From IMG/VR virus record IMGVR_UViG_3300027759_003944: 64,000 nt of DNA; one strand, 5' to 3'. The notes beneath the pieces are model-generated. The model saw nothing but the letters and a program-made list of their open reading frames with translations. It searched no databases and had not been told where the DNA came from. This DNA is from a virus (taxonomy: Duplodnaviria; Heunggongvirae; Uroviricota; Caudoviricetes). This document shows positions 11,759-39,060 of this stretch, one piece after another. Positions within the stretch are counted from its first letter, which is position 1. Each line of letters opens with the position of its first letter. The position numbers were made by a program, and so were the translations under genes.

Positions 11759-11781
11759 ACATGAAACAAACAAGGAATCGC

Positions 11782-13391: not shown

Positions 13392-13560
13392 ACTTTGGTT
13401 GGTATTTGCCATTCTTGCTGTGTTGATCCATTTGGGTATCACAACCTGGAGGCGACTGGAAGGCCGGGAACAATGGGCATTGACAAAATCTATTACATAT
13501 AGTATAATTGTTGCATTGCTGGCTGTGCTGGCAATGGCTGTGATTGTTGTTTTATTCTAA
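13384..13560 (+). CDS. small two-TM membrane protein (58 aa)
   Basis: MIRLWLVFAILAVLIHLGITTW...LLAVLAMAVIVVLF; overlaps upstream stop. Confidence 0.4.
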   Translation: MIRLWLVFAILAVLIHLGITTWRRLEGREQWALTKSITYSIIVALLAVLAMAVIVVLF

Positions 13561-13570
13561 AGGAAATCAA

Positions 13571-16954: not shown

Positions 16955-17223
16955 CTTGGTTTAATTCTCAACACCTGCAACAGGCATCAGCATACGCTGA
17001 TAGACAGAAAAATAATCCAGTGTTGAATTACTTTTGGCATTTTGCACTGTCGATGACCGAAGCCGGTAAATTACTTTTTTTAGCACTAGGCAGTGTTGTT
17101 CATGCAATTTTTCCCTGGGTATTAAATTTCAAATTGTTAGAGTGGCGTGTGAATGCTCTTGAAACTTTAAAAAATAATTTCCCTAACGATCCAATTCTTA
17201 AAAAAATTAATTTTGACAAATGA
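16951..17223 (+). CDS. hypothetical membrane-associated protein (90 aa)
   Basis: ORF, ATGA overlaps on both sides. Confidence 0.4.
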   Translation: MTWFNSQHLQQASAYADRQKNNPVLNYFWHFALSMTEAGKLLFLALGSVVHAIFPWVLNFKLLEWRVNALETLKNNFPNDPILKKINFDK

Positions 17224-18764: not shown

Positions 18765-19477
18765 AGCAGTTAATTACAGGCGGATGCAGTTTTAGCGAAT
18801 GTTGCGGTCATGCTGGTACTTGGCCTCGTCACCTGTCAACTGCATTATATGACTACGAACATGTTAGTACAGCAATGGGCAGTCAAGGCAATGGTTTAAT
18901 CAGTCGCAAAGTGATATACCAGGTTACTGAAACATTAAAGCATACAGCCGCCCGAGATATCCTGGTGGGCATCATGTGGTCAGGACCTGATAGACATGAC
19001 TTTTATCAGTTAGGCAACCGACAGTTCGACAACCAAGACGGTTGGATGGAGAATCCCACACGTTTTGTGCCTAACGGGCAAGGTGCCTGGACCATTGTTA
19101 GTTCCGGTTGGCGTATGCCTGAATCGGCTAATTACTTTGTAAACTTTCATGATTTCATCGGGCAATACATTTACACATTAGAGCACATATTACGCACCCA
19201 ATGGTTTTTAAAATCTGCAGGTGTTAGATATTTCATGAGTACGTATACCAGTGCTGTGCTGCCTGAGATTGCACGAACACACAATGACACAAGACATCTG
19301 TATGAACTGGTTGATACTGATACGTTTTTGCCTGTGACTGGCGAGTATGAATGGTGCAGAGATCATTCAGGATTGCCTTTTCCCGTACCTACAGATCCGC
19401 ACCCTGGTGTGGAACAACATCAAGCATTTGTCAACCAAATCATCCTTCCTTATTTGAAAGAAAGAAACTTAGCATGA
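18761..19477 (+). CDS. hypothetical protein (238 aa; possible SGNH-type hydrolase, weak)
   Basis: ITGGCSFSE near N-terminus. Confidence 0.35.
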   Translation: MKQLITGGCSFSECCGHAGTWPRHLSTALYDYEHVSTAMGSQGNGLISRKVIYQVTETLKHTAARDILVGIMWSGPDRHDFYQLGNRQFDNQDGWMENPTRFVPNGQGAWTIVSSGWRMPESANYFVNFHDFIGQYIYTLEHILRTQWFLKSAGVRYFMSTYTSAVLPEIARTHNDTRHLYELVDTDTFLPVTGEYEWCRDHSGLPFPVPTDPHPGVEQHQAFVNQIILPYLKERNLA

Positions 19478-20442
19478 CATTTTTAGTAACAGGCGGCCTA
19501 GGCCTTATTGGACACAACATAGTGACACGATTGCAAGCATATGAGTCGGTTGTGGTTGTAGACAATAAAACCACATATGGTATTATTCCTCAAGCAGAAA
19601 TTGATTATCTAATGACTGAGCGCCGAAAGAAGATTGCCGAGGGAACACCAATCTATACAATTGATATTGTAGACGCTGACAACGTTGATTTTGTGATGAG
19701 CAAACACAAACCCAAAGTTGTGATTCACTGTGCCAGTTTTCCCCGACAGAAAGTTGTCAATGCCAACCCTGCGCTGGGTGCAGACGTAATGATGCGTGGT
19801 TTGATCAACTTGCTTGAGAGTGCCAAAAAACACAAAATTGAACGGTTTGTGTACATCAGTAGCAGTATGGTGTACGGAGACTTTGAAGACCAAGTGTTGG
19901 AAGATGATCTATGCCGTCCGCAAGGGCAGTATGGAATAATGAAACTATGTGGAGAAGACCTTGTTAAAGATTATAGCCGCCGTTGTGGCTTTGAGTATGT
20001 TATTATCCGCCCCAGTGCTGTATATGGGCCACTTGATGTTGAAGACCGAGTTGTTGCCAAATTCATGCTCACAGCAATGCGCGGCGGAGTGCTCCGAGTT
20101 AATGGAGCAAACGAAACACTAGACTTTACCTATGTGGATGATGCCGCAGATGGTATTGTGTCAGCAGCCACACGTATCATGTGCCGCAACATGACATTCA
20201 ACATCACCAAGTCACACTCAGTAAGTCTGTTACAAGCGGCAGAAATGATTGTGAAAATTGTGGGCAAGGGTACAATTGAAGTGCGGGACAAAGACACAGA
20301 CTTTCCCAGCCGCGGTGCGCTAAACATTGATCGTGCTCGAACCATCTTGAGTTTTGATCCAAAAGTAGACGTAGAAGAAGGATTCCAAAAGTATTATGAG
20401 TGGCTTAACAGTTCCGTTTACTGGACTACAAAAACAGTATAA
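19474..20442 (+). CDS. NAD-dependent sugar epimerase/dehydratase (SDR family)
   Basis: VTGGLGLIGHNIV Rossmann GxxGxxG; YxxxK-type region; 322 aa. Confidence 0.75.
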   Translation: MTFLVTGGLGLIGHNIVTRLQAYESVVVVDNKTTYGIIPQAEIDYLMTERRKKIAEGTPIYTIDIVDADNVDFVMSKHKPKVVIHCASFPRQKVVNANPALGADVMMRGLINLLESAKKHKIERFVYISSSMVYGDFEDQVLEDDLCRPQGQYGIMKLCGEDLVKDYSRRCGFEYVIIRPSAVYGPLDVEDRVVAKFMLTAMRGGVLRVNGANETLDFTYVDDAADGIVSAATRIMCRNMTFNITKSHSVSLLQAAEMIVKIVGKGTIEVRDKDTDFPSRGALNIDRARTILSFDPKVDVEEGFQKYYEWLNSSVYWTTKTV

Positions 20443-21475
20443 CAATCTTCGCACAGAGATCTTGGATGCGACAGATACAGTGTTGCGTTCAGGGTCTCTC
20501 ATGAGTGGCAATTACACTTATGAGTTTGAAGACTGGCTGGCTCGACGCAATCATCAACCCTATGCTGTGACCTGCCACTCAGGTACACAGGCTCTGGAGA
20601 TCATCGCCGAGTGGTATCGAACTGGTTGGAATACTACTCCCACTGTGGCTGTGCCCACGCTGACTTATCCAGCCACACTCAACGCATTTGTGCGAGCAGG
20701 CTGGAACTTGCACATTGTGGACACTGATCGATATGGTGTGATGGACATGACCAAACTTGCTCACGTGGCAGACATTCACGCTATATGCAGTGTGGGTCTG
20801 TATGGGCAATCTGTACAGCGCATGATGCAGAATTTATGGACGTTGACACACCCTGTGATTGAGGATGGCGCACAACATTGGCTCAGCAATGATTGCAAAC
20901 GCATAGGCGACTGTGCCATCAGTTTTGATCCCACAAAGAATCTGGCCAACTACGGCAATGGTGGCGCTGTGATCACTGCCAATCGTGAGTTGATGGAATT
21001 TGCTAGAAACTGGGTCAGTAACGGCAAGCACACAAAACATGCTGAAACAGGCACCAACAGTAGAATGAGTGAAACGGATTCGGCGCAGATGTTGGTCAAG
21101 ACTCGTTACATTGATCAGTGGCAACAACGTAGACGCACCATTGCTCAACACTGGATGGAGATGTTGAAACAAAATCCTGATATCACTTGTTTAATTGATG
21201 ACACCAACTTTGATCAACACTGCTTTCACAAGTTTGTAATACATACAGACAACCGAGATATACTACAACGTAATCTTGCCTTGCGTGGCGTTGAGACCAA
21301 AGTGCATTATGCAACACCCATGCATGAGTTGCCAGCATATCAACACTATCCCGGACCAGACTTGCTGAGTGCTGGCAGCAGTCTAGCACGTAGATGTCTT
21401 TCACTTCCGATCTACCCTGAACTGTCAGACTTGGAAGTTGAATACGTTATTGATTCTTTGCTCGATTGTGTCTAA
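20396..21475 (+). CDS. DegT/DnrJ/EryC1/StrS-family PLP-dependent sugar aminotransferase
   Basis: N-terminal LQKQYNNLRTEILDATDTVLRSGS..., SGTQALEIIA, later lysine-containing region; 359 aa; start may be later than 20396. Confidence 0.7.
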   Translation: MSGLTVPFTGLQKQYNNLRTEILDATDTVLRSGSLMSGNYTYEFEDWLARRNHQPYAVTCHSGTQALEIIAEWYRTGWNTTPTVAVPTLTYPATLNAFVRAGWNLHIVDTDRYGVMDMTKLAHVADIHAICSVGLYGQSVQRMMQNLWTLTHPVIEDGAQHWLSNDCKRIGDCAISFDPTKNLANYGNGGAVITANRELMEFARNWVSNGKHTKHAETGTNSRMSETDSAQMLVKTRYIDQWQQRRRTIAQHWMEMLKQNPDITCLIDDTNFDQHCFHKFVIHTDNRDILQRNLALRGVETKVHYATPMHELPAYQHYPGPDLLSAGSSLARRCLSLPIYPELSDLEVEYVIDSLLDCV

Positions 21476-22092
21476 TGTACAAAGTTTATATTATTTCATT
21501 AATAAATGCAAATGCAGGCATTCACTCACAATCAGCGTCACGTAGATATCATAATACAATAAAATCCTGTCAGGAATATCAATGGCCGGTTGAGCTTTTT
21601 AATGCTGTTAATGGATACAACTTAACAGAAAATGTATGGAGTGAGTACCATTTACTTCCACCAAAAAAATCAACAAAGCATTTGGATAAATTTGGAAATT
21701 TACCCGGGGCACACGGATGTTTTTTAAGTCACTTTACTCTGTGGAATCAATGCATAAGTTTAAATGAACCAATTGTAATTTTAGAAGACGATTCTGAAAT
21801 ATTGTCACCATTAACTGAAATTAGCACTGAGTTTGATTTGTTAAAATTAACACGCCCTTACGCTTTACATCAAAGTTCTAAACTAGGCACATGGTCTGCA
21901 GGTGCTTCTGCTTATTGGTTATCACCAATTGGAGCAAAAAAATTAGTAGAATTTTCGACTACACAAGGTCCAGGACATGCTGATAAATTAATGGGATCAA
22001 ATATTTTAAACTGGGGATACATACCATCCCCCATTGTAAAAATATCACCTACTAAAGGTAGTAGTACCAATCCAATCAATCATCCTTACTAA
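21475..22092 (+). CDS. glycosyltransferase family 25-like (LPS beta-1,4-galactosyltransferase-type)
   Basis: VYIISL...R, FNAVNG, GCFLSHFTLW, ILEDD motifs; AT-rich. Confidence 0.55.
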   Translation: MYKVYIISLINANAGIHSQSASRRYHNTIKSCQEYQWPVELFNAVNGYNLTENVWSEYHLLPPKKSTKHLDKFGNLPGAHGCFLSHFTLWNQCISLNEPIVILEDDSEILSPLTEISTEFDLLKLTRPYALHQSSKLGTWSAGASAYWLSPIGAKKLVEFSTTQGPGHADKLMGSNILNWGYIPSPIVKISPTKGSSTNPINHPY

Positions 22093-24293
22093 GGTACCAA
22101 ACTGCGTTTGACGAACGCATACGTGGCCAACCAATCCCACTCGTAACTCTTTTTCAGCGCCGCAAAGTCACCGCTGACTGAGTCATAGTACTCCACACCA
22201 TCTTCTGCACCTTTGCGACTCCATTGCCCTTCTGTGGTATCAACAGTGAGCCACCGGTTGAGTCTGTGCTCGCTTTCCACATCAGGCAAACTGGCTTTTA
22301 ATTTGAGCACTTCACGAAATGCAGTGCGCCAACACATCCAGTCCGAATCATGATACATGGCTGTGCCCGACACAATGGGCACAACTTCATGTGGTTGGTC
22401 CAGGGTAAAGTCTAATCCTTGCCCAGTATTCTCCAACACCAGCTGCTTGTTGTAAGCAATCATGGCCTGGTGTCCATATATCAATCCGTTCACAGGATTG
22501 TGTGCATGAAAGATATAGTGCTTGGGTTGTTGCATGCGATCCGGTTGCCAGGACCAGTCAAAATCTCTAGTGACTTCTAGTTTGGCAAACACAGCAAAAA
22601 ACCAAGGTGTAGTACTTTGTCTAGCAGCCGCTTGATATGCTGCCACACGACCATTCACACCCGACACATGATGCATGAGATTCTTATGATTTGCGTCGTG
22701 GGCTGTGTATTCCAAATGTTCAAAGTAAATTTCGGCATTTATTTCACCGTTGCTGATAAACACAATGTCTAATGGAGAGTCTTTCAACATGCGCTGTGTA
22801 CGATCTATATGAGCATAGTCATACAATTGTGTCTTTATGTAAGGAACAGCCACCCGGGGAACAACTACTGTGCCTGCACCACTCCCAACAGGCACAATGG
22901 TCTTGGTCTCTTGCCGCCATAATGGCACAGTCACTAGATTACCCTGTACATAGTCATGATTGGTAAAGGTGGCCACGGGGCCTGCCCAGTCAGTTGTTTT
23001 TACTGCATCTACTTGACTATCAGCACTATGCACAATCACTGGCATAGATCTACGTGGTACAGCGGTGTTGACAAAGTTCACATCATACCACTCTAGTAAC
23101 GCTTTCTTTTCAGCGCGGGCAGCAAATGTGGGTACATGCATGAAGAAGGTGTCTCCAAACTTTTCATTATCTGACTTGAACACATGCAACATTGTGGCCT
23201 GCCATTGTTCGGGGTGCCACGAAAAGTCAAAGACAGTGTAGTCGCAAATGCTTGAGCATATCCACACAAACTCATGTTCAGTGCCTATGCTCTTGGCAAT
23301 GCGTATTAGTGTATCTCGGTAGTTGTCAAAGTAACGCACAGTGCGTGTGGTGTTGGGAATTTGTCCAGCTGAGCCGCATAGGTGATCTATTTCGTAGATG
23401 GCTGTGGCATTGCTGGCAATTTTTGCACGTATCTGATCCACATACTTGATTTCTACAGCACCAGGTACTGTGTACACTGGACCACCTGTGCGTTGATGCT
23501 GAGTGGCAAATTGATATATGTACGGAGGATCGCCTGGGTCAGGCCTCCACGAAAAGTCCACTGTGGATTCATCTATGCTGTTGGGCACAGTCCAAGCAGT
23601 TCGATCTTCCGGCAACTCTGCACGTGGCCAGTTCACATACTTGCGTTCTGTAGCACCTGGCACATGATATTCCACTGTGGGCATTTTTTCTGCTGACCAC
23701 CATTGATTACCAAATACGTAAACATAAGGCGGGTCTCCAGGATCTGGACACCAACTACGGTCCCAGTTACACTCCACTAGAGTGTGCCAGCGACTGGCAT
23801 GTCGTTCAGGCAACCGTGCCTGTGGGTTGTCTATGTATTTGGTTTGTGTGGCTCCGGGCACATGATATTCCACAGTGGGCATCACCGTGCCAGGCCACCA
23901 TTGATTACCAAATACGTAAACATAAGGCGGGTCATGTGGATGTGGTGCCCAAGACGTATCAAATTCCGCGTCCTTTACTAAAAATTTGTAAGGTTTGAGA
24001 TGACTACGATTAAGAATTGTTTGAGCATGAAAGTGATAGTTGTCCACAGCACCTGTTCTTGGCACCAGATACGTGCCCGAATGATCATGCCATTGGCTGG
24101 GCCATGCATGAGTAAATTCGCTTTGCCATGGCACTGGTTCCCAAAGAAAATCAAAGCCAGTATAATCCGCTAAGTATGTGATCCACCAGAAATATCTAGT
24201 GCGACTCAGACTCTGCGCATGTTCAAATGACTCAGCAGGCCGTTCGTGTGCAAACACTCCGGGTTTTTTACCAGAATAAAATACATCAAACAT
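22089..24293 (-). CDS. 734-aa protein with about six tandem roughly 45-aa repeats (F/D-x-SW-x-PDPGDPPYVYVFGNQWW...TVEYHVPGA)
   Basis: Three near-identical and three degenerate repeat units visible in translation; no recognisable catalytic motif. Confidence 0.6.
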   Translation of the reverse strand: MFDVFYSGKKPGVFAHERPAESFEHAQSLSRTRYFWWITYLADYTGFDFLWEPVPWQSEFTHAWPSQWHDHSGTYLVPRTGAVDNYHFHAQTILNRSHLKPYKFLVKDAEFDTSWAPHPHDPPYVYVFGNQWWPGTVMPTVEYHVPGATQTKYIDNPQARLPERHASRWHTLVECNWDRSWCPDPGDPPYVYVFGNQWWSAEKMPTVEYHVPGATERKYVNWPRAELPEDRTAWTVPNSIDESTVDFSWRPDPGDPPYIYQFATQHQRTGGPVYTVPGAVEIKYVDQIRAKIASNATAIYEIDHLCGSAGQIPNTTRTVRYFDNYRDTLIRIAKSIGTEHEFVWICSSICDYTVFDFSWHPEQWQATMLHVFKSDNEKFGDTFFMHVPTFAARAEKKALLEWYDVNFVNTAVPRRSMPVIVHSADSQVDAVKTTDWAGPVATFTNHDYVQGNLVTVPLWRQETKTIVPVGSGAGTVVVPRVAVPYIKTQLYDYAHIDRTQRMLKDSPLDIVFISNGEINAEIYFEHLEYTAHDANHKNLMHHVSGVNGRVAAYQAAARQSTTPWFFAVFAKLEVTRDFDWSWQPDRMQQPKHYIFHAHNPVNGLIYGHQAMIAYNKQLVLENTGQGLDFTLDQPHEVVPIVSGTAMYHDSDWMCWRTAFREVLKLKASLPDVESEHRLNRWLTVDTTEGQWSRKGAEDGVEYYDSVSGDFAALKKSYEWDWLATYAFVKRSLVP

Positions 24294-25470
24294 GATTAGA
24301 ATTGACGAAATCTATAACAATACATTTTGGCCTTGGATTAAGAAACATCATCCTGGAGTGAGATTATGGTGGTGCGAACCATTCGGTAGGACTGATCCTG
24401 ACAGCTTAGTTAATTATGGCAGTGATGACATACATGAACACAATTATACACTGTTATGGGACCAAGAGCCTATTCATTTGAACGTGCATCTACCCACTTT
24501 TGAATCTGTGGCGGAGAAAAATTCTGATTTTGCCAAGACTTGGCAACATAAACAACGTAACCAAGAGCACCTACACAACAAACTGCGCAAAATAACTGAT
24601 ATGCCACCTTGGATTCTTAAAGAAAAAAAATTCGGATCAATCATCACCAGCGAACGTGACAGTGACACTGTTGACGCTGTATGCAAAAAATTTGGTTGGC
24701 ATAGTTATTATTATTTTTTTCATGGCTGGGCTGCTTTAGACTGGTATCGAGGATATGACAAGACTTTTTTGATCACTCCCTGGCAAGAAAGAACAATTAC
24801 CCAAACATTCCTGGCACCCAATCGAATTGTGGCAGGAGCACGTGAGCACAGATTAGAAATGTTGTATTGGATATTTAAACTTGGTATGAACAACAATCAT
24901 GTATCTTGTCCTGCTGTATGTCCAGCAGAAAACATTGCCATACTAGATGCCGTACAGCCTCTTAGAGACCAGTACCCTGACATTGAAACAGTGTTTGCCC
25001 AACAGGCATTGCCCCGAAACTTTGAGGGGGAAATTGATCATCCCATGCATTCATGTTGGCTCAGTTTGTTTGATGAATCAGCTGAAAGTTTGTTATACTT
25101 GGTTACTGAAACTGTGGCTACAGGTCGCAGACATCACTTGACTGAAAAAACATTCAAACCCATTGCCTTGGGTATGCCGTTTATGATTGTGGGCACACAG
25201 GGCAGTTTGCGGTATTTGCGCAGTTATGGTTTCCGAACATTTGGTGACCTGTGGGATGAAAGTTATGATGACGAACCAGATGACTCAAAGCGCATAGAAA
25301 AAATTGCACAGGTATTGAAGCAGTTAGAACAAAGTGATCGCCAGGCCATATTTGAATCTGCACATGATGTTATTGCGCACAATTGGAATCATTTTTACAA
25401 CGGCGGTTTTGAACAAATACTATGGCAAGAATTGCAGGACATGTTGAATGAGCTTGAATTTAATAGCTGA
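24292..25470 (+). CDS. GT10-like (alpha-1,3-fucosyltransferase-like) glycosyltransferase, paralogue 1
   Basis: C-terminal block LSLFDESAESLLYLVTET...TEKTFKPIALGMPFMIVG...GFRTFGDL resembles the FucT FxLxFENS...YVTEK...P...VDDF motif. Confidence 0.5.
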   Translation: MIRIDEIYNNTFWPWIKKHHPGVRLWWCEPFGRTDPDSLVNYGSDDIHEHNYTLLWDQEPIHLNVHLPTFESVAEKNSDFAKTWQHKQRNQEHLHNKLRKITDMPPWILKEKKFGSIITSERDSDTVDAVCKKFGWHSYYYFFHGWAALDWYRGYDKTFLITPWQERTITQTFLAPNRIVAGAREHRLEMLYWIFKLGMNNNHVSCPAVCPAENIAILDAVQPLRDQYPDIETVFAQQALPRNFEGEIDHPMHSCWLSLFDESAESLLYLVTETVATGRRHHLTEKTFKPIALGMPFMIVGTQGSLRYLRSYGFRTFGDLWDESYDDEPDDSKRIEKIAQVLKQLEQSDRQAIFESAHDVIAHNWNHFYNGGFEQILWQELQDMLNELEFNS

Positions 25471-26629
25471 TCAAGTCACCCGGGGTAGAATATATCCTGC
25501 ACTGGCTCGGCACCAGGCTGCGCCATACACTCAAGGCTGGCGTGAGTTTGGACAACATTGGCCCAACACTATACCCATACGACTGCAAGAATACTGTGAC
25601 CATCACGGTGTCAAACTAAACATCACGGATATTGATTCTGAGTGGCCAGCTGATGCATTTTACCCTGTGGGACTAGGCTTCTTTAATTTTGACATTGATT
25701 ACTTTGAACTAATGCCTGAGCGCATACGCACAGGTTTATTCTTTGGCGATGTGCGTGTGTTGTTTTACTATCATGAAGGCGATAACCCGTTCCGTATCAA
25801 AACTAGACTTGATGACCTATGTACCAAGCACAATTTGCGCGATGACTGCTATGTATTTGTGAGTTCTAATTCAGCGGCCAGTAGTATTCCACGTTTTGTT
25901 GCATTTCAAGACAGTGAACTTTGGTACTGGCAGCGCAATCATGAATCACCAGCATTGAACATACACCATGAACCTAGAGAGCGTGATTTTACTGTGTTGA
26001 ACAGACTGCACAAAAGCTGGCGTGCCTTGATCATGGCAGATTTAAAAAGTCTTGACATACTGAATAACTCATACTGGAGCTATTGCGAGCCAGGCGAATT
26101 TGCGGATTCGGACTGTCCAATAGAAATTGATGCCATTGCAGGTTTACGCACTGCTACTGAGGAGTTTTTGAAATCAGCACCTTATGTGAGTGATGAGTTG
26201 GACAATGATCAGCGAAACAATCACAGCACACTGGTTGCCAAGTATCATGTCAACAGCTATTGCAACATTGTGGTTGAAAGTCAATTTGATTACGATCAAA
26301 GTGGTGGCGTACTCTTAAGTGAAAAAACATTCAAACCTATCAAACATGGGCAACTGTTTTTTATTGCAGGTGCTGCTGGTAGTTTGCAAATGCTACGTGA
26401 CTTGGGATATCGTGTGTTTGATTCAGTATTGGACAACAGTTACGATTTAGAACCTGATCACACACAACGCTGGATGGCGCTGACAAGATCCATTTATTTT
26501 GCTCAACAGCAATTACCACAACTTTTTGAGCAGGCCAGAGCTGACATAGAACACAACCAGCAGTTATTTCAAGCCATAAAGACTGAACGTTTAAATAGCT
26601 TGATCAAGGACATCAATGAATCCCATTAA
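25448..26629 (+). CDS. GT10-like glycosyltransferase, paralogue 2
   Basis: IVVESQF...SEKTFKPIKHGQLFFIAG...GYRVFDSV; homologous to 24292 gene. Confidence 0.5.
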   Translation: MSLNLIADQVTRGRIYPALARHQAAPYTQGWREFGQHWPNTIPIRLQEYCDHHGVKLNITDIDSEWPADAFYPVGLGFFNFDIDYFELMPERIRTGLFFGDVRVLFYYHEGDNPFRIKTRLDDLCTKHNLRDDCYVFVSSNSAASSIPRFVAFQDSELWYWQRNHESPALNIHHEPRERDFTVLNRLHKSWRALIMADLKSLDILNNSYWSYCEPGEFADSDCPIEIDAIAGLRTATEEFLKSAPYVSDELDNDQRNNHSTLVAKYHVNSYCNIVVESQFDYDQSGGVLLSEKTFKPIKHGQLFFIAGAAGSLQMLRDLGYRVFDSVLDNSYDLEPDHTQRWMALTRSIYFAQQQLPQLFEQARADIEHNQQLFQAIKTERLNSLIKDINESH

Positions 26630-27656
26630 CTCTTACACCAGCTGGCAGCCACTTGAAGAAGTCATTGTGGGCCGTGCGTACACACCAGACTATTTTGACT
26701 TTATTGAAAATGCACAGGTACGCAATCAACTGCAACAAATACTGTCAGAGACCGAAGAAGACCTGGCCAACTTGCAAAAGACCATTGAGACTTATGGCGC
26801 TCGAGTGCGTAGACCTGACTTGCCCAACAAACATCACTTTCAACGTGATCAAATGAAAGGCAACGGCGCACCACTGCCGCCACTTACACCAAGAGACTGG
26901 CAGATCACACTGGGTGATCAACTGTTGCGTGTGCTGGCCATGCCAGAACTGGATGGTTTGTGTGCCGAGTATGAAGCAGCACAGCCCGGCAGTGTGATCA
27001 ACCCACATGGTCCCACCGGCTGGGACGAGAACTGTATTCTCAATCAAGCATCAGCATCATGCATTGTGCGTGTGGGCCGTGATGTATTTTTTGACAACTC
27101 TGACTTCCTGCGTCCAGGCCAAACTCGTTGGATTGTGGACAATGTATTAGGTCCAGAATATCGCATACACGAAGCCATAACAGATGGACATGGAGATGCT
27201 GTGTTTGCTATATTGAAGCCGGGGGTGTTGTTGTCAAGCAAACACGATGTAAACTTGAACTTGGCAGCAGACTTTCCGGGATGGGACGTTTGTAAAATTT
27301 GGGACAGCAGTATCTGGGCTGCCATGGAAGTAGGCAAGTTTAAATATGAACAATCACCAGGTGCTTGGTATGTACAAGGACAAACCCCCACACCCGAGTT
27401 CACAGACTTTGTTGACACTTATCTAACCAAGTGGACTGGCTTTGTTGCAGAAACTGTGTTTGATGTCAACTGCTTGGTGCTGGATGAGTCACACGTTATA
27501 TTCAGTGCTTACAATCGAGAAGTCTTTGACTATTGCCGTCGGCATCGGATAGAACCCATCATCAGTGAACTGCGTCACAGTTACTTCTGGGATGGTGGTA
27601 TCAGTTGTTGCACACAAGACATTCGACGTCGCGGCGGCCTGGAAACTTACCTTTAA
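26616..27656 (+). CDS. amidinotransferase-family protein (AGAT/StrB-like)
   Basis: C-terminal WDGGISCCTQDIRRRGGLETYL matches the amidinotransferase catalytic-Cys tail GGG(F)HC(V)T(L)D(V)RRG(T)L(Q)SY. Confidence 0.55.
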   Translation: MNPINSYTSWQPLEEVIVGRAYTPDYFDFIENAQVRNQLQQILSETEEDLANLQKTIETYGARVRRPDLPNKHHFQRDQMKGNGAPLPPLTPRDWQITLGDQLLRVLAMPELDGLCAEYEAAQPGSVINPHGPTGWDENCILNQASASCIVRVGRDVFFDNSDFLRPGQTRWIVDNVLGPEYRIHEAITDGHGDAVFAILKPGVLLSSKHDVNLNLAADFPGWDVCKIWDSSIWAAMEVGKFKYEQSPGAWYVQGQTPTPEFTDFVDTYLTKWTGFVAETVFDVNCLVLDESHVIFSAYNREVFDYCRRHRIEPIISELRHSYFWDGGISCCTQDIRRRGGLETYL

Positions 27657-29137
27657 CTGTAAACCGTTACACCATACAACATTTCAAATCTATCAGCGTC
27701 TGCACGGTCATTGACCATGGGCTCTCCACGTATGTTCAAACTGGTGTTGAGCAACATAGGACATCCTGTTTGGGCATACCATGCTTCCAACAATTGTCTT
27801 ATTCCCGACCCATCCGCCGCAACAGTTTGAACTCTACTGGTACCATCAACATGACATATAGCAGGGTAAAGATCAGGATTCCGGCAATGGGCAACTGACT
27901 GCATATAACTGTGAGTGTGCCAACCAGGCTGCATATCAAAGTAGTCATCAGCCATCTCAGCAAGAATGACTGGAGCAAAAGGTCTGAATTTTTGTCTGCG
28001 TTTGATTGCATTTACTTGATCCTTGATTTTTGCACCACGGGGGTCAGCAAGTAGGCTTCGGTTACCCAACGCCCTGGGCCCAAATTCAGCGCGACCATTA
28101 GCAACTCCAACAATACCATCGTGAAGTAAACCGCGGACAATATTGTCAACAGGATAAGCACCAGAGATATTGTGACCAAGGTAAGCATTGCGCCAATGCA
28201 GCCTTTTGCCATACGCAAGAGCAGCGGCTCCAAGACTTGACCCTGCGTCTCCTGGGCAGGGCATGATCCAGATGTTTTCAAAGTAATTTCCTAGTCGTCT
28301 ATTGGCCAAGCAGTTGAGTGCAACACCGCCTTGATACACAAGATTGGTGCTCCACTCAAAATCTCTAGCACGTTGCATAACATTGCCAATCAAGCGTTCC
28401 AGCAGGGTTTGAGCACTGGCGGCGATATCTTCATTGCTGAGACTGCCCATGAATTCATCATCAAACCCTGTGTGCAAGTTTTGTCCAAACTCTATTTCAT
28501 CTGGATCACGTATTAGCACTGCTTCCATCACATGATGATAACTGTCTCTGCCATAAGCAGCCATACCCATGGTGATGTATTCTTCGTCTAGTGGGTGTAG
28601 GCCCACACGCTGAGTAATTGCACTATAAAACAGGCCCAGGCTGTGCGGATACTTTTGTCCCCACAGTCGTCGGTATCTTGCTTGTCCTTGCTTGTCATAT
28701 TCTGCTCCCCAGATTGTGATTGTGTCCCACTCGCCTATGGCATCGATTACCACAACTGTGGCACGGTCAAATGGGCTGGTTTGAAAACCGCCAGCGGCAT
28801 GACTCAAATGATGGCTGTGACAACTGTAGGGCGTGTACGAAAACCATCCTCGCAGTTGTTGTTTTAAAATTTGGCCTGTGGTCAACTTGTTCCACTCTAT
28901 GCCTTGACCTGCATACCACTGGCGAAGTTGTTTTTTCCAGGGTGTTTCGTAGTAGGCCACATGATCTACGGCAAGATTTGCGTCACATGCGTCCCAGATT
29001 AGGCCAAGGTTGATGTCAGCATCATTCTTCTTCTTGCTGTAGCGTTCTGCATGTCCAGCAAATACAATGTCACCTCGTGAGTCAATCACTGTGGCTGCGG
29101 CGTCATGAAAGCCGGCACTGATTCCTAGGATATTCAT
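27653..29137 (-). CDS. carbamoyltransferase (NodU/CmcH family)
   Basis: N-terminal MNILGISAGFHDAAATVID... typical of NodU/CmcH O-carbamoyltransferases; 494 aa. Confidence 0.7.
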   Translation of the reverse strand: MNILGISAGFHDAAATVIDSRGDIVFAGHAERYSKKKNDADINLGLIWDACDANLAVDHVAYYETPWKKQLRQWYAGQGIEWNKLTTGQILKQQLRGWFSYTPYSCHSHHLSHAAGGFQTSPFDRATVVVIDAIGEWDTITIWGAEYDKQGQARYRRLWGQKYPHSLGLFYSAITQRVGLHPLDEEYITMGMAAYGRDSYHHVMEAVLIRDPDEIEFGQNLHTGFDDEFMGSLSNEDIAASAQTLLERLIGNVMQRARDFEWSTNLVYQGGVALNCLANRRLGNYFENIWIMPCPGDAGSSLGAAALAYGKRLHWRNAYLGHNISGAYPVDNIVRGLLHDGIVGVANGRAEFGPRALGNRSLLADPRGAKIKDQVNAIKRRQKFRPFAPVILAEMADDYFDMQPGWHTHSYMQSVAHCRNPDLYPAICHVDGTSRVQTVAADGSGIRQLLEAWYAQTGCPMLLNTSLNIRGEPMVNDRADADRFEMLYGVTVYS

Positions 29138-29231
29138 TTGTAGATAAATGGATCACGTTTGCGAAGTTCTTTTAATTTTTTACGATAACGTATTTCCAGC
29201 GTGATTCTATCCCAAAGTTGTCGTATCCATT

Positions 29232-30260
29232 TCATGTCAATCTCCTTATTTGCTGCTCAGCATAGTCTGCATCGCACCAGCGATACTCATATGTAGCCTC
29301 TGCCGTGCTGGTGCGTATTTTATATACATCAAGGTGTGGCGCCAGTCGATCCCAAATTTCTTTATAGTTGCGTGTGCCAAAACTTCGTTGCAAATCTACT
29401 TGTGCAACCTTGGGATGGCCGATAGTTAAACTTTGGTCCTCCGGATCAAATCCATTGGATACAAGCCATGTTCTAAACTCTGCCAACTTCTTTATTTGCC
29501 ATTCATGTGCGCCTGTTTCATTGCCCCATTCTATATCAAAATCTCCAGCAGCTTCTGTTTGTGATCTCAACCCGGTTGTGACTAATTTGTCAACATCTTG
29601 ATCTTCGTCAATGAAAACCTCCCAATGATGCTTGCCCACGGATTTGTTTACTCCCACATACACACCACCTAGATCTCGATTGATAGTTTCTACACCAAAC
29701 AGTTCATAATCTTTTGCATCCAATGCAAATCTTGGTGCATTGAGCCAGCACATGAGTTGACTGGGTCTACGCCATTCAGGTGCTTGTACCAGTTTGCGCA
29801 TGCTGAGTATGAGACTTTCGTATTCATGACACAGCAAATTAAGTTGCCGTATGTGCCAGCGAATTGTGGAATCAGCTCGATGATAATAATCACTTATACC
29901 ACCTGACCATCCTTGCAAATCTTCAAAATATCTGTGCAATTTATTCATATGGTCATGATTTATATCTAGGTTGCTTTGTATGGTATTGGCAGTATCAAAA
30001 TGGTCGTTGATGTGATAGCCTAGATCACTGTTGTTAATGGCCTCAATGCTATCATTTATGCATTTGCAAATGTATTCAGCCGTGCGTTGACTTTCTGTCC
30101 AACCTAGCCAGCAGTAATTTTTTTCCAAATGCAAGTTGTTGCGTATGATATCATTCAATGCTCCGAGCCATTTGCGACTGAGGCTATTATCATAAACATC
30201 AATATACAGTTTGTGTTCAGTATCTTTGCCACGTAGAGTTATTTCAATTTGATCAAGCAA
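29232..30260 (-). CDS. hypothetical protein (342 aa)
   Basis: ORF, head of the minus-strand rSAM operon. Confidence 0.5.
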   Translation of the reverse strand: MLDQIEITLRGKDTEHKLYIDVYDNSLSRKWLGALNDIIRNNLHLEKNYCWLGWTESQRTAEYICKCINDSIEAINNSDLGYHINDHFDTANTIQSNLDINHDHMNKLHRYFEDLQGWSGGISDYYHRADSTIRWHIRQLNLLCHEYESLILSMRKLVQAPEWRRPSQLMCWLNAPRFALDAKDYELFGVETINRDLGGVYVGVNKSVGKHHWEVFIDEDQDVDKLVTTGLRSQTEAAGDFDIEWGNETGAHEWQIKKLAEFRTWLVSNGFDPEDQSLTIGHPKVAQVDLQRSFGTRNYKEIWDRLAPHLDVYKIRTSTAEATYEYRWCDADYAEQQIRRLT

Positions 30261-31530
30261 TGTTGTTCCACCATTCTAGCACCGCAGGACGATCAGCAAG
30301 TATTTGTTCCATTGTAATCTTCTGTGTGCGTATACTTTCTAATTGTAACACACGAGCACGACCTTTTGCAATACCAGCCGCATATTGATCAGGCCATTGT
30401 TCTTCAAATGTGGGTCGTGTTTTTAACTGTGTCAGCATGTCACGCAACGCACCATCCGTTTCAGGCACAAGTTCATCAATCCAAGGTTCTAATAAATGTC
30501 TAGGCAAGGCCAATGGACTCATCACAATGTTAGGCGAGAATGAAAACATTACTTTAGCCAGGACTTCGACTCCATATTCTTGGGCAAGTTGTCTAATGCG
30601 TGTAACTTCGAACATTCCGGGCAGAGTGAGCGTAAAGTCAATTCGTACTTGACGTCGGTTACGTTGGATCGCAACTGCCGCACCAAAATTGTCAAGCCAT
30701 TGATCATAGTCAAGGCCTGTTCTAATGTACTCGCCAATTGCGCCTGTGCCGTCGAGACTTGCGCATATCTGCCAATCGCGCAGCCCGCTGAGAATATCGC
30801 GATATAAGTTAACACCTCGATAATCCACTCTGGATAAATTTGTATTGTATCTAGCATATACTCGTGGCCCGTCCCCTAATTCAACTATGCGGCGCATGTA
30901 ACGCCAATGTTGTTCGTACATCAAGGGTTCGCCACCTACCCAGTATACTTCTTCAACACGATGCTGTTCCACGGCTGCTGAAAACTCTGCTTCTATTTGG
31001 CTGTCTTGAAATGCTGTGATACTTGTTCTTACTTCTGGACGCATCCATGAGTTTTTTGGATTTGACCAGTCAACCATGTTCTGTTGCTTCTGCTCTGTTT
31101 CCCAACTACTACTCAGCATGTCACCGCACGTTCTACATTTGAAATTGCAAAGATTACTAAATCTATAATCCCAACTCACAGGCTGCATTGTGGTGCGTCC
31201 TGCGGTGTCAGTGGTTTCCCAAATGTCAGGGTACTTATGCTTGAACAATTGCCAAAAATATGTGCGGTAAACATCAGTGTTCAACAGTTTGTCATTGCAC
31301 ACTTCGCACTCGGGCAGTGTTTCTCCAGCCATCATGCGGCTGCGCACACTCATCATGTGTGGAGAATTCCAATGTTCATCCAGTGTGATGGGAATGTATT
31401 CACCAGTGCCTGCGGCGGTGTCTATGTACTGTTCAAAGTTCTGTGCAGGTTCACGTGATGCACAACACATACGTCGTTCTGTTTGTGGACTCAAGTAGGT
31501 ATGCACCCAAGGTGCCATGCACAAGCTCAT
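30253..31530 (-). CDS. radical SAM protein, paralogue A (N-terminal Cys-rich domain + CNFKCRTCG core)
   Basis: CxxxCxxC in MoaA/anSME-like context CN(F/L)xC(x)(Y/T)C; GGEPL, YNTN, GEYIRTG motifs shared with paralogues. Confidence 0.7.
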   Translation of the reverse strand: MSLCMAPWVHTYLSPQTERRMCCASREPAQNFEQYIDTAAGTGEYIPITLDEHWNSPHMMSVRSRMMAGETLPECEVCNDKLLNTDVYRTYFWQLFKHKYPDIWETTDTAGRTTMQPVSWDYRFSNLCNFKCRTCGDMLSSSWETEQKQQNMVDWSNPKNSWMRPEVRTSITAFQDSQIEAEFSAAVEQHRVEEVYWVGGEPLMYEQHWRYMRRIVELGDGPRVYARYNTNLSRVDYRGVNLYRDILSGLRDWQICASLDGTGAIGEYIRTGLDYDQWLDNFGAAVAIQRNRRQVRIDFTLTLPGMFEVTRIRQLAQEYGVEVLAKVMFSFSPNIVMSPLALPRHLLEPWIDELVPETDGALRDMLTQLKTRPTFEEQWPDQYAAGIAKGRARVLQLESIRTQKITMEQILADRPAVLEWWNNIA

Positions 31531-35253: not shown

Positions 35254-36577
35254 ACCATTCTACTAGGTTAGGAAATGTAACAGCAAAGTTTTTGTCTCTG
35301 CGTTGATCATATTGTGTGTAAAACTGTTTGAAGTCATTCAATAACTTGGGCATTTCAAATGCTTCGCTGTGCGGAGTTTTGACCACGTCCAGATAATCAA
35401 TCAAGCGTTGTACATGATTGATTTCGTGTTCGTGCAGACAGGGATTTTGACGATTGTGAAACAACCAAGATTCCAACTGCAACCGATAGCGATTGCGCAT
35501 GTGGTCAGGTAATACCAATGCACTTTGAAAGCTGGGAAAACGCAGGATATTCAAAGTAAAATTTACTTGATCACGGCCATAACGTTGTTTTAAATTCAAC
35601 ATCATGTTGAGGTGATCTACAATACTGTCCAAGCACAAGGCATTGATGGTACACATCACGTGTACAGCACCAACAAATCGACCTTGCAACAAAAACAACA
35701 CATTGTTGAGCCATTGATCATAGTCCAGGCCATCACGAATGTATTCTGCTTGCGCGAATGTGGCTTCCATTGAAGTGTACAGATCCACCCTGGGCAACGT
35801 GGCAACTGCCACAGCAAAGTCTTTCATCTTTTCCATGTCAATGCCAAGATTTGAATTGATGGCCAAACTTGTTGTGCTACGCCCTTGATTGGTCTTGAAC
35901 CACTCGATTAGCTGCCAGGTGTATCCTGACATCAAGGGTTCACCGCCAGTTATTCGGAGTTCTTGCAAGGTGCGGTGGAGGTCTCGTTCCCACCAGTCAA
36001 AGAAGGCTTCCACGTACGGATTAGTTTCACCGAATTTATAAAGTTGACTACTATCATGAGTGTGAGTAAAATGGTTCCTGCCATCGCTAACCAACCCGTT
36101 GTAGGGTCCATGCTTGCGTATATCATTGACCCAAGTGGAACTAAAAGCAGGATTACAATAAGAGCAAGCAAACTGACAAGTGCGATCGAAACTGATTTCG
36201 AGAGTTCTAAGATTGACATCATCTTGGATGGGAGTTTTAACAGCTTCATTCAAGGCCTCTATGGGATAAATTTTACTTTTGTACACACGGTCACTCACAG
36301 CGTCAGTGTGCATGTCTTCGATCTTCCAGCAGTATTCACAACCTGCAGGACGTTCACCTGCCAGCATTTTACGCCGGTCTTCTTTCTTTTGATCAGAATT
36401 GTGCAGCAGCCTAGAGTTGAGCCGGACTTTATCAGCGTCCACCAAATGGGCTGGCGGGTGATGGCAACTTGTTGTCTGCCCACTTCCTAACCAAATGGTA
36501 GCATTGTACCATTTTGCCGCACAAAAACTTGCGGATACAGGATCTAATACCTGTTGCTTAAATTCTAAATCTGTCAT
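35234..36577 (-). CDS. radical SAM protein, paralogue D
   Basis: CQFACSYCNPAFSSTW; ITGGEPLM; AEYIRDGLDYDQW; N-terminal SCHHPPAH and GERPAGCEYCW. Confidence 0.7.
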   Translation of the reverse strand: MTDLEFKQQVLDPVSASFCAAKWYNATIWLGSGQTTSCHHPPAHLVDADKVRLNSRLLHNSDQKKEDRRKMLAGERPAGCEYCWKIEDMHTDAVSDRVYKSKIYPIEALNEAVKTPIQDDVNLRTLEISFDRTCQFACSYCNPAFSSTWVNDIRKHGPYNGLVSDGRNHFTHTHDSSQLYKFGETNPYVEAFFDWWERDLHRTLQELRITGGEPLMSGYTWQLIEWFKTNQGRSTTSLAINSNLGIDMEKMKDFAVAVATLPRVDLYTSMEATFAQAEYIRDGLDYDQWLNNVLFLLQGRFVGAVHVMCTINALCLDSIVDHLNMMLNLKQRYGRDQVNFTLNILRFPSFQSALVLPDHMRNRYRLQLESWLFHNRQNPCLHEHEINHVQRLIDYLDVVKTPHSEAFEMPKLLNDFKQFYTQYDQRRDKNFAVTFPNLVEWYDSIQV

Positions 36578-37679
36578 TGATATATTGGGTTAACCGTTCA
36601 GGGAGTTCTGCACGTTCACGACGATTGTGTTCGCGGAGATGTTGATAATTGTATTTACAAATGTCTTCAGCAGCCTCCAAGAAACTGGCAGCACCATTAT
36701 AACATATATCTGCCACAACATCAACCATTCTGTCAGCACGAGATTTGGGGTCATCTATTAAATCAAAACGTTCGTCAATCAAATGACTGAATGTGTGGAA
36801 TCCTGCATCACGCAAATCTCTGTAGTATCCTGGATTGGCCGCTACAACAAATGGATGCCGCATGATCATGGGCTTCCAAATCTTTTCTGTGCGGAAAGTG
36901 TAGGGGTAATCGTATACTGTTTCAGTCACCACACTGAAGTAAGTGTCAATATAGGCAACAGGATTAATTTCAGCATCGCCCCAGGTGTTGCCAAACAAGT
37001 GGTGTTTGACAAATCCTGTGGGCAGGTTATCCATATTGGGCAGCGCACGATCAATTTCGTATTGTTTGGGCAACAGTCTCACCGGCTCTGAATCACCAGT
37101 GGTCAACTTACTGGTCCAGGCCATTTCCACACGGTCATTGAGATTGGTCCACAGAGCACGTTCCAGTAACTCTCGCTCACGCATGGCATCTATCAGATAC
37201 TTGCGATGCGGTCGCAGTCGGCCATTCAAAAACAAAAAATCATATGGCTTGTTGTCTTTGTGATACACCTGCGTATAAGATTCATGCGCATGTAAGTTTT
37301 CCAAGTACTCAACAATGTTGGAAAAGTAGCAGTCGGTTTTGCAATAATTCCAGCCTGGTTCTATGTTGCCCGATGTTAGTAATCCAATTCGACCGTCTCG
37401 CACATGTTCCTCCAGCATGAGTCGTTTCAACTGCAACAACATGGTTTGACTGCCTTCTGCTGGATTGGAGAATATGATGTGTCCTGGGTGTCGAGTTGCC
37501 CAGTCAGTAATAGAATACCAATTTTCTTTTAGTACGACTCGGCCCACAATATAAACAGCCACCGGATCCGGTTGGTCAGGCCACTGCCAAAAGCTGCCAT
37601 CAGCATAGGGTTTCAGCAGGTCCCAGACTTCGGCCCATTCATCCACAATAATTTTATGCTTGCCGAGCATGATATGCAC
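36558..37679 (-). CDS. GT10-like glycosyltransferase, paralogue 3
   Basis: YFSVVTETVYDYPYTFRTEKIWKPMIMRHPFVVAANPG...GFHTFSHL. Confidence 0.5.
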   Translation of the reverse strand: MHIMLGKHKIIVDEWAEVWDLLKPYADGSFWQWPDQPDPVAVYIVGRVVLKENWYSITDWATRHPGHIIFSNPAEGSQTMLLQLKRLMLEEHVRDGRIGLLTSGNIEPGWNYCKTDCYFSNIVEYLENLHAHESYTQVYHKDNKPYDFLFLNGRLRPHRKYLIDAMRERELLERALWTNLNDRVEMAWTSKLTTGDSEPVRLLPKQYEIDRALPNMDNLPTGFVKHHLFGNTWGDAEINPVAYIDTYFSVVTETVYDYPYTFRTEKIWKPMIMRHPFVVAANPGYYRDLRDAGFHTFSHLIDERFDLIDDPKSRADRMVDVVADICYNGAASFLEAAEDICKYNYQHLREHNRRERAELPERLTQYINDRFRI

Positions 37680-39060
37680 ACTCCTCCCACCATGATCGCA
37701 TCTCAGGGAATGTTTTCACGAAGTCTGTGCCGCGGCGACGGTCATGTTCACTGAAAAAACGATAGAAGTCTGCTCGGGCACGTGAGTGATCTGTCAACTG
37801 TGCTGATTGCATCCAGGCAATGTCACGATCCAGTCTGTGCAATTCATAGTCTTTGAATCCTTTGAATGGTGCGTCTTCAGTTTCGATCTGTCGCACCATC
37901 CAGGCCCACAACAGTTCCAGTTTGTCTACATAACTCTCAGGCAGGATCTGTAGACTCTGCCATGCAGGCTCACGCAACACAGGTGTGTCAAACCACACAC
38001 GTTGATATGCGTTGCTGTATACTTTGCGCAGGCCCAGGATGCCAGCAAACAACTTGTCCAGACTGGTCACACTCAAGTTGTTCATTGTGACAATAAATGT
38101 AAGACTTGAATAATTGGGTACTTCTGTAAGGAATTGGTTTACTCGATCCCATAACAGGTCAAAGTCCAAACCGTCACGCATGTATTCTGCTTGGGCTCCC
38201 CAACCATCTAAACTCACATACTGCATGAAGTGTTCAATGCGCCCGTCACAGATGCGTTTTACATAGTCTAAGTATTTCTGCCATGACTTTTCATCTACTG
38301 AGAAGTTACTTGTGACATTCAAATGCAGTTTAGGACTGGGGTTGGCCAACACATAATCAAACACACGATAGGTATTTTTGTCCAGCAACGGCTCACCACC
38401 AGTCATTCTAAAATGTTCTAGGTGAGGGTACAGGTCTGGCCACCAAGACCAGAAGGCGTCAACATAAGGGTTTGATTCTCTAACGGGAATAGGACCACGA
38501 CTGCCAGCAAAATGCTCAGGAGCATTATGAGGCACCAGGGTAGGATATGCTCCCAGTCTAGCAACTTCATCTGCCCATGAACTACTAAACTGAGGGCTGC
38601 AATAACTACACCGCAGATTGCAAGCGTGATTAAAATTAACTTCAACATAACTTGGAATGACATTTTCCGCTCCTGTGCTATTTTTTATTGATTCAAAATC
38701 TACGGCTGCCCAAGGCTCACCCGAACGATAGTGTCGGTCACTCAACTTGCCTTCGTTCTCCATGTTCCAGCAGTAAGAGCATTCTGTAGGCCGCTCTCCT
38801 GCCAACATCATCCGACGCTGTGCTTTTTTATGAGCAGTATTGTGCAATGCCGAAACATCTATTGTAATCTCTGCAGGATTGATAGCATGCAGCGGAGGAT
38901 GATAACATGAGTTGTTCATGCCTGTGGTCAGGTGTAGACTAACTTGTTTCCATTTGGCCAGGCAAAGTGCAGGACCCAGTTGTTGTTTCATTTGTTCAGC
39001 AGAATTTAAGAACTTGCTCTTGGTGTCTATTGACTCATCGCCTTTGTTCATTTTGGCCAT
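37654..39060 (-). CDS. radical SAM protein, paralogue E
   Basis: CNLRCSYCSPQFSSSW (MoaA-like); MTGGEPLL; AEYMRDGLDFD; N-terminal SCYHPPLH and GERPTECSYCW. Confidence 0.7.
   Translation of the reverse strand: MAKMNKGDESIDTKSKFLNSAEQMKQQLGPALCLAKWKQVSLHLTTGMNNSCYHPPLHAINPAEITIDVSALHNTAHKKAQRRMMLAGERPTECSYCWNMENEGKLSDRHYRSGEPWAAVDFESIKNSTGAENVIPSYVEVNFNHACNLRCSYCSPQFSSSWADEVARLGAYPTLVPHNAPEHFAGSRGPIPVRESNPYVDAFWSWWPDLYPHLEHFRMTGGEPLLDKNTYRVFDYVLANPSPKLHLNVTSNFSVDEKSWQKYLDYVKRICDGRIEHFMQYVSLDGWGAQAEYMRDGLDFDLLWDRVNQFLTEVPNYSSLTFIVTMNNLSVTSLDKLFAGILGLRKVYSNAYQRVWFDTPVLREPAWQSLQILPESYVDKLELLWAWMVRQIETEDAPFKGFKDYELHRLDRDIAWMQSAQLTDHSRARADFYRFFSEHDRRRGTDFVKTFPEMRSWWEECAYHARQA

Follow-up and report, generated by a model that had tools for sequence, protein, structure and literature searches.

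A predicted divergent amidinotransferase and a carbamoyltransferase meet at a module boundary in a putative sugar-modification island of an uncultured jumbo phage

Amidinotransferases serve a range of acceptors, which are amino acids for AGAT or AmtA, polyamines for HsvA and, for the scyllo-inosamine-4-phosphate amidinotransferase StrB1, the amino group of a sugar-like cyclitol made in a pathway that uses DegT-type aminotransferases. Amidino- and carbamoyltransferases also occur together, as in the sxtG/sxtI (saxitoxin) and bluensomycin clusters. Here we analyse two convergent open reading frames (ORFs) that resemble these enzyme types, ORF1 and ORF2, in a 64,000-nucleotide stretch of viral DNA (IMG/VR record IMGVR_UViG_3300027759_003944, Caudoviricetes; hereafter the window). 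An original prediction made from the letters of the window had read them as an amidinotransferase and a carbamoyltransferase that together decorate a sugar or other small molecule. Taken together, our sequence, fold and neighbourhood comparisons suggest that both family assignments hold, that ORF1 belongs to a divergent viral branch with an altered active site, and that the two genes stand side by side as the ends of two adjoining modules and not as partners in one function.

Identity of the two convergent genes

Both ORFs were found where the original prediction had placed a convergent pair with a 4-nucleotide (nt) overlap, at 26616-29137 (Table 1). Their TAA stop codons interlock in a single TTAA (cctTTAActg), that of ORF1 occupying 27654-27656 and that of ORF2 being the reverse complement of 27653-27655, and the ORFs therefore overlap by 4 nt, stop codons counted. 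A database search at E<=1e-3 found 1703 relatives of ORF1, with identities of 83-94% among the 120 matches listed, and ORF1 lies in a 90% cluster of 1678 members; its ratio of nonsynonymous to synonymous substitution rates (dN/dS) against orthologs is ~0.07. For ORF2 and its orthologs the proportions of nonsynonymous (pN) and synonymous (pS) differences are ~0.2 and ~0.77, the latter being saturated. Both are genuine genes and not chance ORFs. We found no terminator or promoter signals above background around their junction, and a megablast search of window positions 26000-30000 against deposited phages returned no match.

ORF1 has no match among the Pfam and NCBIfam models and one unnamed match only among the PHROGs. 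When searched with phmmer against PDB sequences its best match was AGAT (1e-15), followed by HsvA, StrB1 and SxtG, and a family profile built from 60 diverse relatives (identities to ORF1 of 27-40%, with one close homolog besides) retrieved AGAT, HsvA, StrB1 and SxtG only, at 6e-36 to 1e-31; at E<=0.01 both searches matched amidinotransferases only. Among these 60 relatives only 2 touch PF02274. The AlphaFold2 (AF2) model of ORF1 (predicted local distance difference test, pLDDT, 89.2; predicted template modelling score, pTM, 0.90) has a five-fold pseudosymmetric alpha/beta-propeller that appears nearest to the solved amidinotransferases, as HsvA, AGAT, StrB1 and SxtG fill Foldseek PDB ranks 1-7 (E=4.5e-21 to 2.3e-20), whereas arginine deiminase (ADI) and DDAH begin at 3.7e-10. 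The AGAT/StrB-like identity claimed earlier is thus borne out by phmmer, family profile and fold alike, with the C-terminal cysteine as the aligned nucleophile, and the hydrolases are the poorer match by Foldseek (~1e-10 vs ~1e-21 to 1e-20).

The protein ends in ...FWDGGISCCTQDIRRRGGLETYL, and its Cys331 corresponds to the AGAT nucleophile Cys407. Cys331, His192 (AGAT His303) and Asp194 of the H.D motif (AGAT Asp305) are each invariant in the 60 diverse relatives, and Asp94 of the PRD motif (AGAT Asp170) is kept in 59/60. The guanidinium-binding roles of AGAT Asp170 and Asp305 were reportedly described by Humm et al. in 1997. The family also has invariant residues of its own, namely Glu279, Asn285, Asp326 and Arg338. 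Of the Cys/His/Asp triad, the Cys and the His are therefore in place, while the Asp is not: AGAT Asp254 (canonical FDAADF motif), named as the third residue of the published triad in a passage of PMC3684758, aligns with Ser146 of ORF1. We confirmed this assignment by aligning ORF1 to a canonical cyanophage enzyme, ORF309 of S-SCSM2R; the position is variable across the 60 relatives (S/D/N/E/P/A), and the local motif is ASAS in 113/120 close relatives. In addition, the residue before the nucleophile is Ser330 in 120/120 close relatives (FWDGGISCCT), where canonical enzymes and 104 of the distant ORF1 relatives have His.

Considering these two serines, the chemistry of ORF1 may differ from classical transamidination. 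Together with the lack of a Pfam or NCBIfam match, and with the fold that hydrolases of the same superfamily have in common with it, they could even be taken to mean that ORF1 is no transferase and is instead a deiminase-like hydrolase of guanidino groups, a binding protein or an enzyme acting on another electrophile. We find this improbable, since the nucleophile, the His and the Asp pair for guanidinium binding are invariant, purifying selection is strong, sequence and fold lie 10-11 orders of magnitude nearer to transferases than to hydrolases, and the invariant acidic residues Glu279 and Asp326 could replace the triad Asp. The combination of a conserved Cys, His and Asp pair with Ser146 and Ser330 therefore suggests that ORF1 works like an amidinotransferase, as a divergent variant and not a textbook member.

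ORF2 matches PF02543 (Carbam_trans_N) at 124 bits (cut-off 24) and PF16861 (Carbam_trans_C) at 163 bits (cut-off 27), PHROG 1601 ('Nol-like carbamoyltransferase') spans its residues 1-481, and the nearest solved relatives are NovN, GdmN and TobZ (2e-49 to 5e-34), the GdmN alignment covering residues 10-479. The functional residues of GdmN are H27, Y82, H133, H137, D156 and D333, where His27 is the general base, Tyr82 a conserved Tyr, and His133, His137, Asp156 and Asp333 form the iron site (PMC9633730). By alignment their counterparts in ORF2 are His11 (general base), Tyr63 (conserved Tyr), and His109, His113, Asp132 and Asp297 (iron site), all of which are invariant in 8 orthologs with the exception of His11. 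Both the Kae1-like N-terminal and the YrdC-like C-terminal domains that the original prediction had proposed to look for are present, and the latter retains its motifs GRAEFGPRALGNRS (348-361) and KRRQKFRPFAP (379-389) intact. On the strength of these domains, mapped residues and motifs we therefore assign ORF2 as a complete class III, NodU/CmcH/TobZ-type O-carbamoyltransferase. Its score against the NodU equivalog NF041651 (NCBIfam) was 131.7 bits and did not reach the cut-off of 1000, and by these sequence criteria ORF2 is a family member and not a NodU ortholog.

Modular inheritance around the junction

The notion of a coupled enzyme pair was examined from both sides, taking on the ORF1 side the best 80 of at least 582 confirmed IMG/VR loci (motif FWD[GSA]GxHC) and on the ORF2 side 56 well-flanked islands out of at least 550 viral loci. 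It failed in both directions: a carbamoyltransferase lies within 10 kb in only 4/80 of the ORF1-family loci, and ORF1 is present in 23/56 carbamoyltransferase islands and absent from 33/56. Many of the ORF1-negative islands retain the carbamoyltransferase, unk342, the radical S-adenosylmethionine (SAM) proteins, the SDR, a DegT and the repeat protein (for these genes see Table 1). In contrast, a p393 ortholog occurs in 20/23 ORF1-positive vs 1/33 ORF1-negative islands, a p392 ortholog in 21/23 vs 2/33, and a DegT of at least 50% identity, orthologous to that at 20396..21475, in 19/23 vs 2/33. The identity ranges of the carbamoyltransferases themselves overlap, at 58-88% in ORF1-positive and 52-73% in ORF1-negative islands. 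ORF2 thus ends a conserved core module with unk342 and the radical SAM genes, and ORF1 is the last gene of an optional cassette, p392-p393-ORF1, whose presence tracks one DegT ortholog, so that the pairing of the two is lineage-specific and not functional.

Moreover, the site where the two genes meet tail to tail is a hot spot for insertions. ORF1 and ORF2 are convergent in 28/28 related viral loci, separated by a gap of 3-4631 bp (median 1377) that may hold a radical SAM gene, FkbM and class I methyltransferases and several unknowns. Because the gap varies in this way, we regard the 4-nt overlap in the window as incidental and non-conserved, and rejected a functional role for it. In one relative (L107, 11476-14185) the gap carries an AMP-binding (adenylating) enzyme and a tryptophan-halogenase-like flavoprotein, which hints that some islands do chemistry beyond sugars. 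A carbamoyltransferase also adjoins a twitch radical SAM gene in the Ralstonia jumbo phage RsoM2USA, whose genes are all annotated 'hypothetical', and in the marine virus AG-345-D19.

These counts bear directly on the idea that ORF1 and ORF2 act jointly on a single small molecule, in the manner of saxitoxin- or bluensomycin-type pathways. It would be in line with 'antibiotic synthesis', the speculative reading that the authors of the S-SCSM2R genome gave to the amidinotransferase ORF309 of that phage (PMC12801897). Both enzyme types do meet in the saxitoxin and bluensomycin pathways, the two genes are always convergent neighbours in the lineage of the window, and they co-occur independently within ~2 kb in AG-345-D19. 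However, 4/80 and 33/56 are hard to reconcile with joint action, the space between the genes is a variable insertion site, and no polyketide, non-ribosomal peptide synthetase (NRPS) or inositol-phosphate synthase gene was seen among the ORFs scanned. We consider joint action very unlikely, and a toxin or antibiotic pathway was rejected because the scanned ORFs include no scaffold-forming gene.

The original prediction had also called both enzymes rare in phages, which their distribution in metagenomic data contradicts. Carbamoyltransferases are common among cyanophages and pelagiphages; relatives of ORF2 were found in 141 phage records, for the most part with 26-33% identity, and number at least 550 loci in IMG/VR; the ORF1 family, with its at least 582 confirmed IMG/VR loci, has only 3 deposited phage records. 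Some ORF1 relatives are already auto-annotated as glycine or inosamine amidinotransferase.

Island genes and a proposed pathway

By the sequence evidence the window derives from an abundant uncultured jumbo phage with Rak2/Atu_ph07-like structural proteins, in which a putative sugar-modification island of ~25 kb adjoins virion genes. The sugar-decoration context suggested earlier was recovered here, in that SDR, DegT, GT25 and NeuD-type acetyltransferase genes surround ORF1 and ORF2 (Table 1).

Table 1. Positions of ORF1, ORF2 and the surrounding island genes in the window
Feature	Position	Strand	Remark
SDR-type NDP-sugar 4,6-dehydratase/epimerase-like	19351..20442	+	best NCBIfam dTDP-glucose 4,6-dehydratase, below curated cut-off
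DegT/DnrJ/EryC1-type sugar aminotransferase	20396..21475	+	best matches PseC, other 4-aminotransferases
GT25-family glycosyltransferase	21466..22092	+	
734-aa repeat protein, conserved island member	22089..24293	-	three W.PDPxDPPY.Y.F..Q repeats
p392, paralog of p393, first gene of p392-p393-ORF1 cassette	24292..25470	+	
p393, E...(T/S)EK..KPI motif	25448..26629	+	overlaps ORF1 start by 14 nt
ORF1, divergent amidinotransferase-like enzyme (GME superfamily)	26616..27656	+	346 aa
ORF2, predicted class III (NodU/CmcH/TobZ/GdmN-type) O-carbamoyltransferase	27653..29137	-	494 aa
unk342, directly upstream of ORF2, core partner of carbamoyltransferase	29232..30260	-	
Five consecutive N-terminal-twitch radical SAM paralogs	30253-31530, 31527-32738, 32735-33994, 33991-35253, 35234-36577	-	
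u373, third paralog of p392/p393 family, amid radical SAM genes	36558..37679	-	
Sixth radical SAM paralog	37654..39060	-	
DegT-like fragment, 245 aa	40114-40851	-	
NeuD/PglB/VioB-type sugar N-acetyltransferase	40796-41443	-	

For this island we propose that it makes and tailors an amino-deoxy-sugar glycan which ORF1 guanidinylates and ORF2 independently O-carbamoylates, a proposal to which we give an even chance. The enzyme identities, the conserved residues, the gene neighbourhood and the modular inheritance are shown by the comparisons above; we infer L-arginine as the amidino donor, an amino sugar as the acceptor and what the glycan is attached to. The SDR 4,6-dehydratase-like enzyme and the DegT aminotransferase would yield a nucleoside diphosphate (NDP)-linked amino-deoxyhexose. 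With L-arginine bound by Asp94 and Asp194 and His192 serving as acid/base, Cys331 of ORF1 would then attack the guanidino carbon of the arginine, whereupon ornithine would leave and an S-amidino intermediate would form on Cys331; passage of the amidino group to the primary amine of the sugar would give a guanidino sugar, to be handled or transferred by p392/p393. Separately from ORF1, the YrdC-like domain of ORF2 would make carbamoyl-AMP from ATP and carbamoyl phosphate, and its Kae1-like iron site would O-carbamoylate a hydroxyl with His11 as base. Since ORF1 overlaps the end of p393 and tracks the DegT ortholog, its action on the NDP-amino-deoxyhexose is the simplest reading, and the gene context makes glycine an unlikely acceptor. 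The position of the island beside virion genes suggests virion proteins as the probable glycan target, with the host envelope as a possible one. A precedent comes from S-SCSM2R, where the StrB1-like ORF309 (1e-60) lies inside a string of glycosyltransferase genes.

Several points weigh against this proposal, beginning with the Ser146 and Ser330 substitutions and the altered chemistry they may entail. No sugar nucleotidyltransferase was found among the window ORFs scanned. The two proteins expected to handle the product, p392 and p393, had no match in Pfam, NCBIfam or PHROG, and none in a profile search of the PDB; their AF2 model is of low confidence (pLDDT 59), and its best matches were Gtf3, SenB and PimA at E>=6e-3. 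Because the model is poor and the PDB profile search empty, the GT-B likeness of p392/p393 is only a hint, and p393 is possibly a GT-B-like glycosyltransferase. The counts by which ORF1 co-varies with its cassette come from related genomes that are not phylogenetically independent, the AMP-binding enzyme and tryptophan-halogenase-like protein found in the junction gap of relatives are atypical for sugar pathways, and most distant members of the ORF1 family sit in non-sugar contexts.

This last point leads to a second acceptor class, in which ORF1 would amidinate a non-sugar amine (a polyamine, an amino acid or a lysine of a virion protein) and would have entered the island by modular accretion. 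Its characterised relatives use glycine, lysine, polyamines and toxin precursors, to go by PDB molecule names, most viral members of the family do not stand beside sugar genes, and the virion proteome of S-SCSM2R was reported to contain a homolog, ORF266 (PMC12801897). We nonetheless think a non-sugar acceptor unlikely, given that in the lineage of the window ORF1 shows translational coupling to p393 and tracks one particular DegT ortholog, and that a canonical amidinotransferase lies within the glycosyltransferase string of S-SCSM2R.

The other contexts of the family are of two main kinds. About 35/80 ORF1-family loci (e.g. L017, L026, L045, L053, L081) form a tight mini-operon with a ~148-aa protein like the C-terminus of arginyl-tRNA-protein transferase (PF04377, ATE_C), a 168-aa unknown and a DUF6614 protein (PF20319), and an arginine-using enzyme in such company may point to a separate pathway that is still unexplored. 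At six loci (L037, L049, L071, L073, L074, L024) QueD (PTPS) and a QueE-like radical SAM gene flank the homolog, which has GTP cyclohydrolase I (FolE) upstream and is therefore inside a 7-deazaguanine precursor operon. Three further distant relatives of ORF1 lie on contigs that proved too short or gave no informative neighbourhood. If extended to the window copy, the latter arrangement would have the whole family serve nucleobase or DNA modification, for example of a 7-deazaguanine derivative. This we regard as extremely unlikely, as FolE, QueD and QueE are absent from the 64-kb window and its ORF1 belongs to a sugar-gene cassette; in addition, none of the papers retrieved on phage 7-deazaguanines linked the ORF1 family to them, and 'amidinotransferase' appeared there only in citations of ArcS. 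Literature searches on phage or cyanophage amidinotransferases, carbamoyltransferases and 7-deazaguanines together yielded no functional study of these genes, and apart from those ArcS citations the S-SCSM2R genome paper only.

Turning to the remaining island genes, the six radical SAM paralogs (30253-39060) have an N-terminal twitch/SPASM-like domain (NCBIfam N_Twi_rSAM), and the ortholog of the first (30253-31530) is the best-kept island gene across carbamoyltransferase islands, at 69-92% identity. The repeats of the 734-aa protein read W.PDPxDPPY(V/I)Y.F(G/A).Q...(M)P(T)VEYHVPGA...KY in full, and its orthologs reach ~1520 aa in related loci L002, L004 and L005; as its start abuts the divergent start of p392 (24292/24293), there is no intergenic promoter space between them. 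The DegT-like fragment aligns to the Pfam model (360 positions) only from about 26 to 94 and may be a truncated or split aminotransferase gene. Downstream of the island lie virion-protein-like genes, among which the protein of 47992-48600 is 56% identical to that of Sinorhizobium phage Phosso, 54% to that of Agrobacterium phage Atu_ph07 and ~45% to those of Rak2-like jumbo phages, and just beyond them a 5066-aa ORF (48772-63972, minus strand). A Pfam search with the latter gave no domain above threshold and a faint CBM_5_12 as its sole match; it may encode a giant fibre or surface protein and is a possible target for glycosylation.

Loci related to the window lie on contigs of up to ~350 kb, and identical ORF proteins are found on a 186.6-kb JGI contig. 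Our scan of a genome collection returned a single contig (L001, NZ_JBBAKG010000003.1; 148 kb) from a 'Haliscomenobacter sp.' metagenome-assembled genome, with the same phage island and an ORF1 of 89% identity. This contig probably belongs to a jumbo phage and was binned wrongly; otherwise it may point to the host. Elsewhere the window carries four tRNA genes (187-1803; Pro-GGG, Gly-GCC, Thr-GGT and Arg-TCG), a B12-binding radical SAM protein (7003-8457, plus strand), an AAA ATPase and, after it, a DUF2201 metallopeptidase/VWA-like protein (9933-13086, plus strand; a CobS/CobT-like pair), an SPFH/Band 7 protein (13544-14368) and ThyX (17220-17900).

Significance and comparison with known systems

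The amidinotransferase and carbamoyltransferase assignments are correct, yet since both families are already auto-annotated or common in viruses they are not new as annotations. What we consider new is the divergent active site of the viral ORF1 subfamily, the modular architecture in which ORF1 and ORF2 are not a pair, and the link of ORF1 to a specific aminotransferase and to two unknown proteins, p392 and p393. This branch of the amidinotransferase family is large, virus-enriched, invisible to Pfam and NCBIfam and without one canonical catalytic residue, and for annotation the lesson is to avoid calling ORF1 and ORF2 a coupled pair or 'antibiotic synthesis' genes. If our proposal is right, the glycan-tailoring island of these abundant uncultured jumbo phages is modular and evolves fast, and its optional cassettes put charged (guanidino) or neutral (carbamoyl) groups on sugars, a plausible route to vary virion or host-surface chemistry in an arms race of adsorption and recognition. 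We would go further only tentatively, and with more doubt than belief, to suggest that the jumbo-phage clade of ORF1 (FWDGGISCC, without the triad Asp) makes a permanently cationic guanidino deoxy-sugar that dedicated transferases place on virion proteins or the host surface. We know of no guanidino sugar modification in glycans outside aminoglycoside-type antibiotics. Were this so, the ORF1 subfamily with its at least 582 viral loci would represent an uncharacterised phage amidino-transfer toolkit, other members of which are connected with proteins resembling arginyl-tRNA transferase or with the 7-deazaguanine pathway.

Among characterised enzymes, StrB1 of Streptomyces griseus (PDB 1bwd) has a fold in common with ORF1 (Foldseek E=1.4e-20; template modelling score, TM, 0.68) and matches the family profile at E=9.5e-32, and both keep the Cys nucleophile, the His and the two Asp residues. 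However, ORF1 is only ~20% identical to StrB1, has Ser146 for the triad Asp and Ser330 for the His before the Cys, and, unlike StrB1, is phage-encoded and missed by the Pfam and NCBIfam models. Human AGAT/GATM (PDB 1jdw), the best single-sequence PDB match, has in common with ORF1 the C-terminal GG.xC.T.D.RRRG...YL tail and the N-terminal P.NSY..W.PLEEVIVGRA motif, whereas ORF1 lacks an equivalent of Asp254 and a 300-flap-like insertion and is shorter (346 vs ~386 aa for mature AGAT). Among phage proteins, ORF309 of S-SCSM2R resembles ORF1 in being flanked by glycosyltransferase (GT), GT25, DegT-like and radical SAM genes, although it carries the triad Asp. Further homologs are UniProt A0A6J5LX73 of an uncultured Caudovirales (TM 0.86, 31% identity), ORF266 of S-SCSM2R (29% identity) and another phage amidinotransferase in Campylobacter phage CP20. 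Similarly, ORF2 shares with TobZ, NodU/NolO, NovN, GdmN and CmcH the two-domain build, the motifs that form carbamoyl-AMP, the catalytic His and the iron ligands, but is shorter (494 aa vs 570-700) and only ~28-30% identical to cyanophage carbamoyltransferases.

Virus-encoded glycan machineries include the viosamine and bacillosamine pathways of Mimivirus, the capsid glycans of chloroviruses and the virion glycosylation of mycobacteriophages. The island of the window, which is that of a bacteriophage, differs from these in having six twitch radical SAM paralogs together with amidino- and carbamoyltransferases, and by analogy it would resemble them in bringing its own dehydratase, aminotransferase, acyltransferase and glycosyltransferase to a place beside the structural genes.

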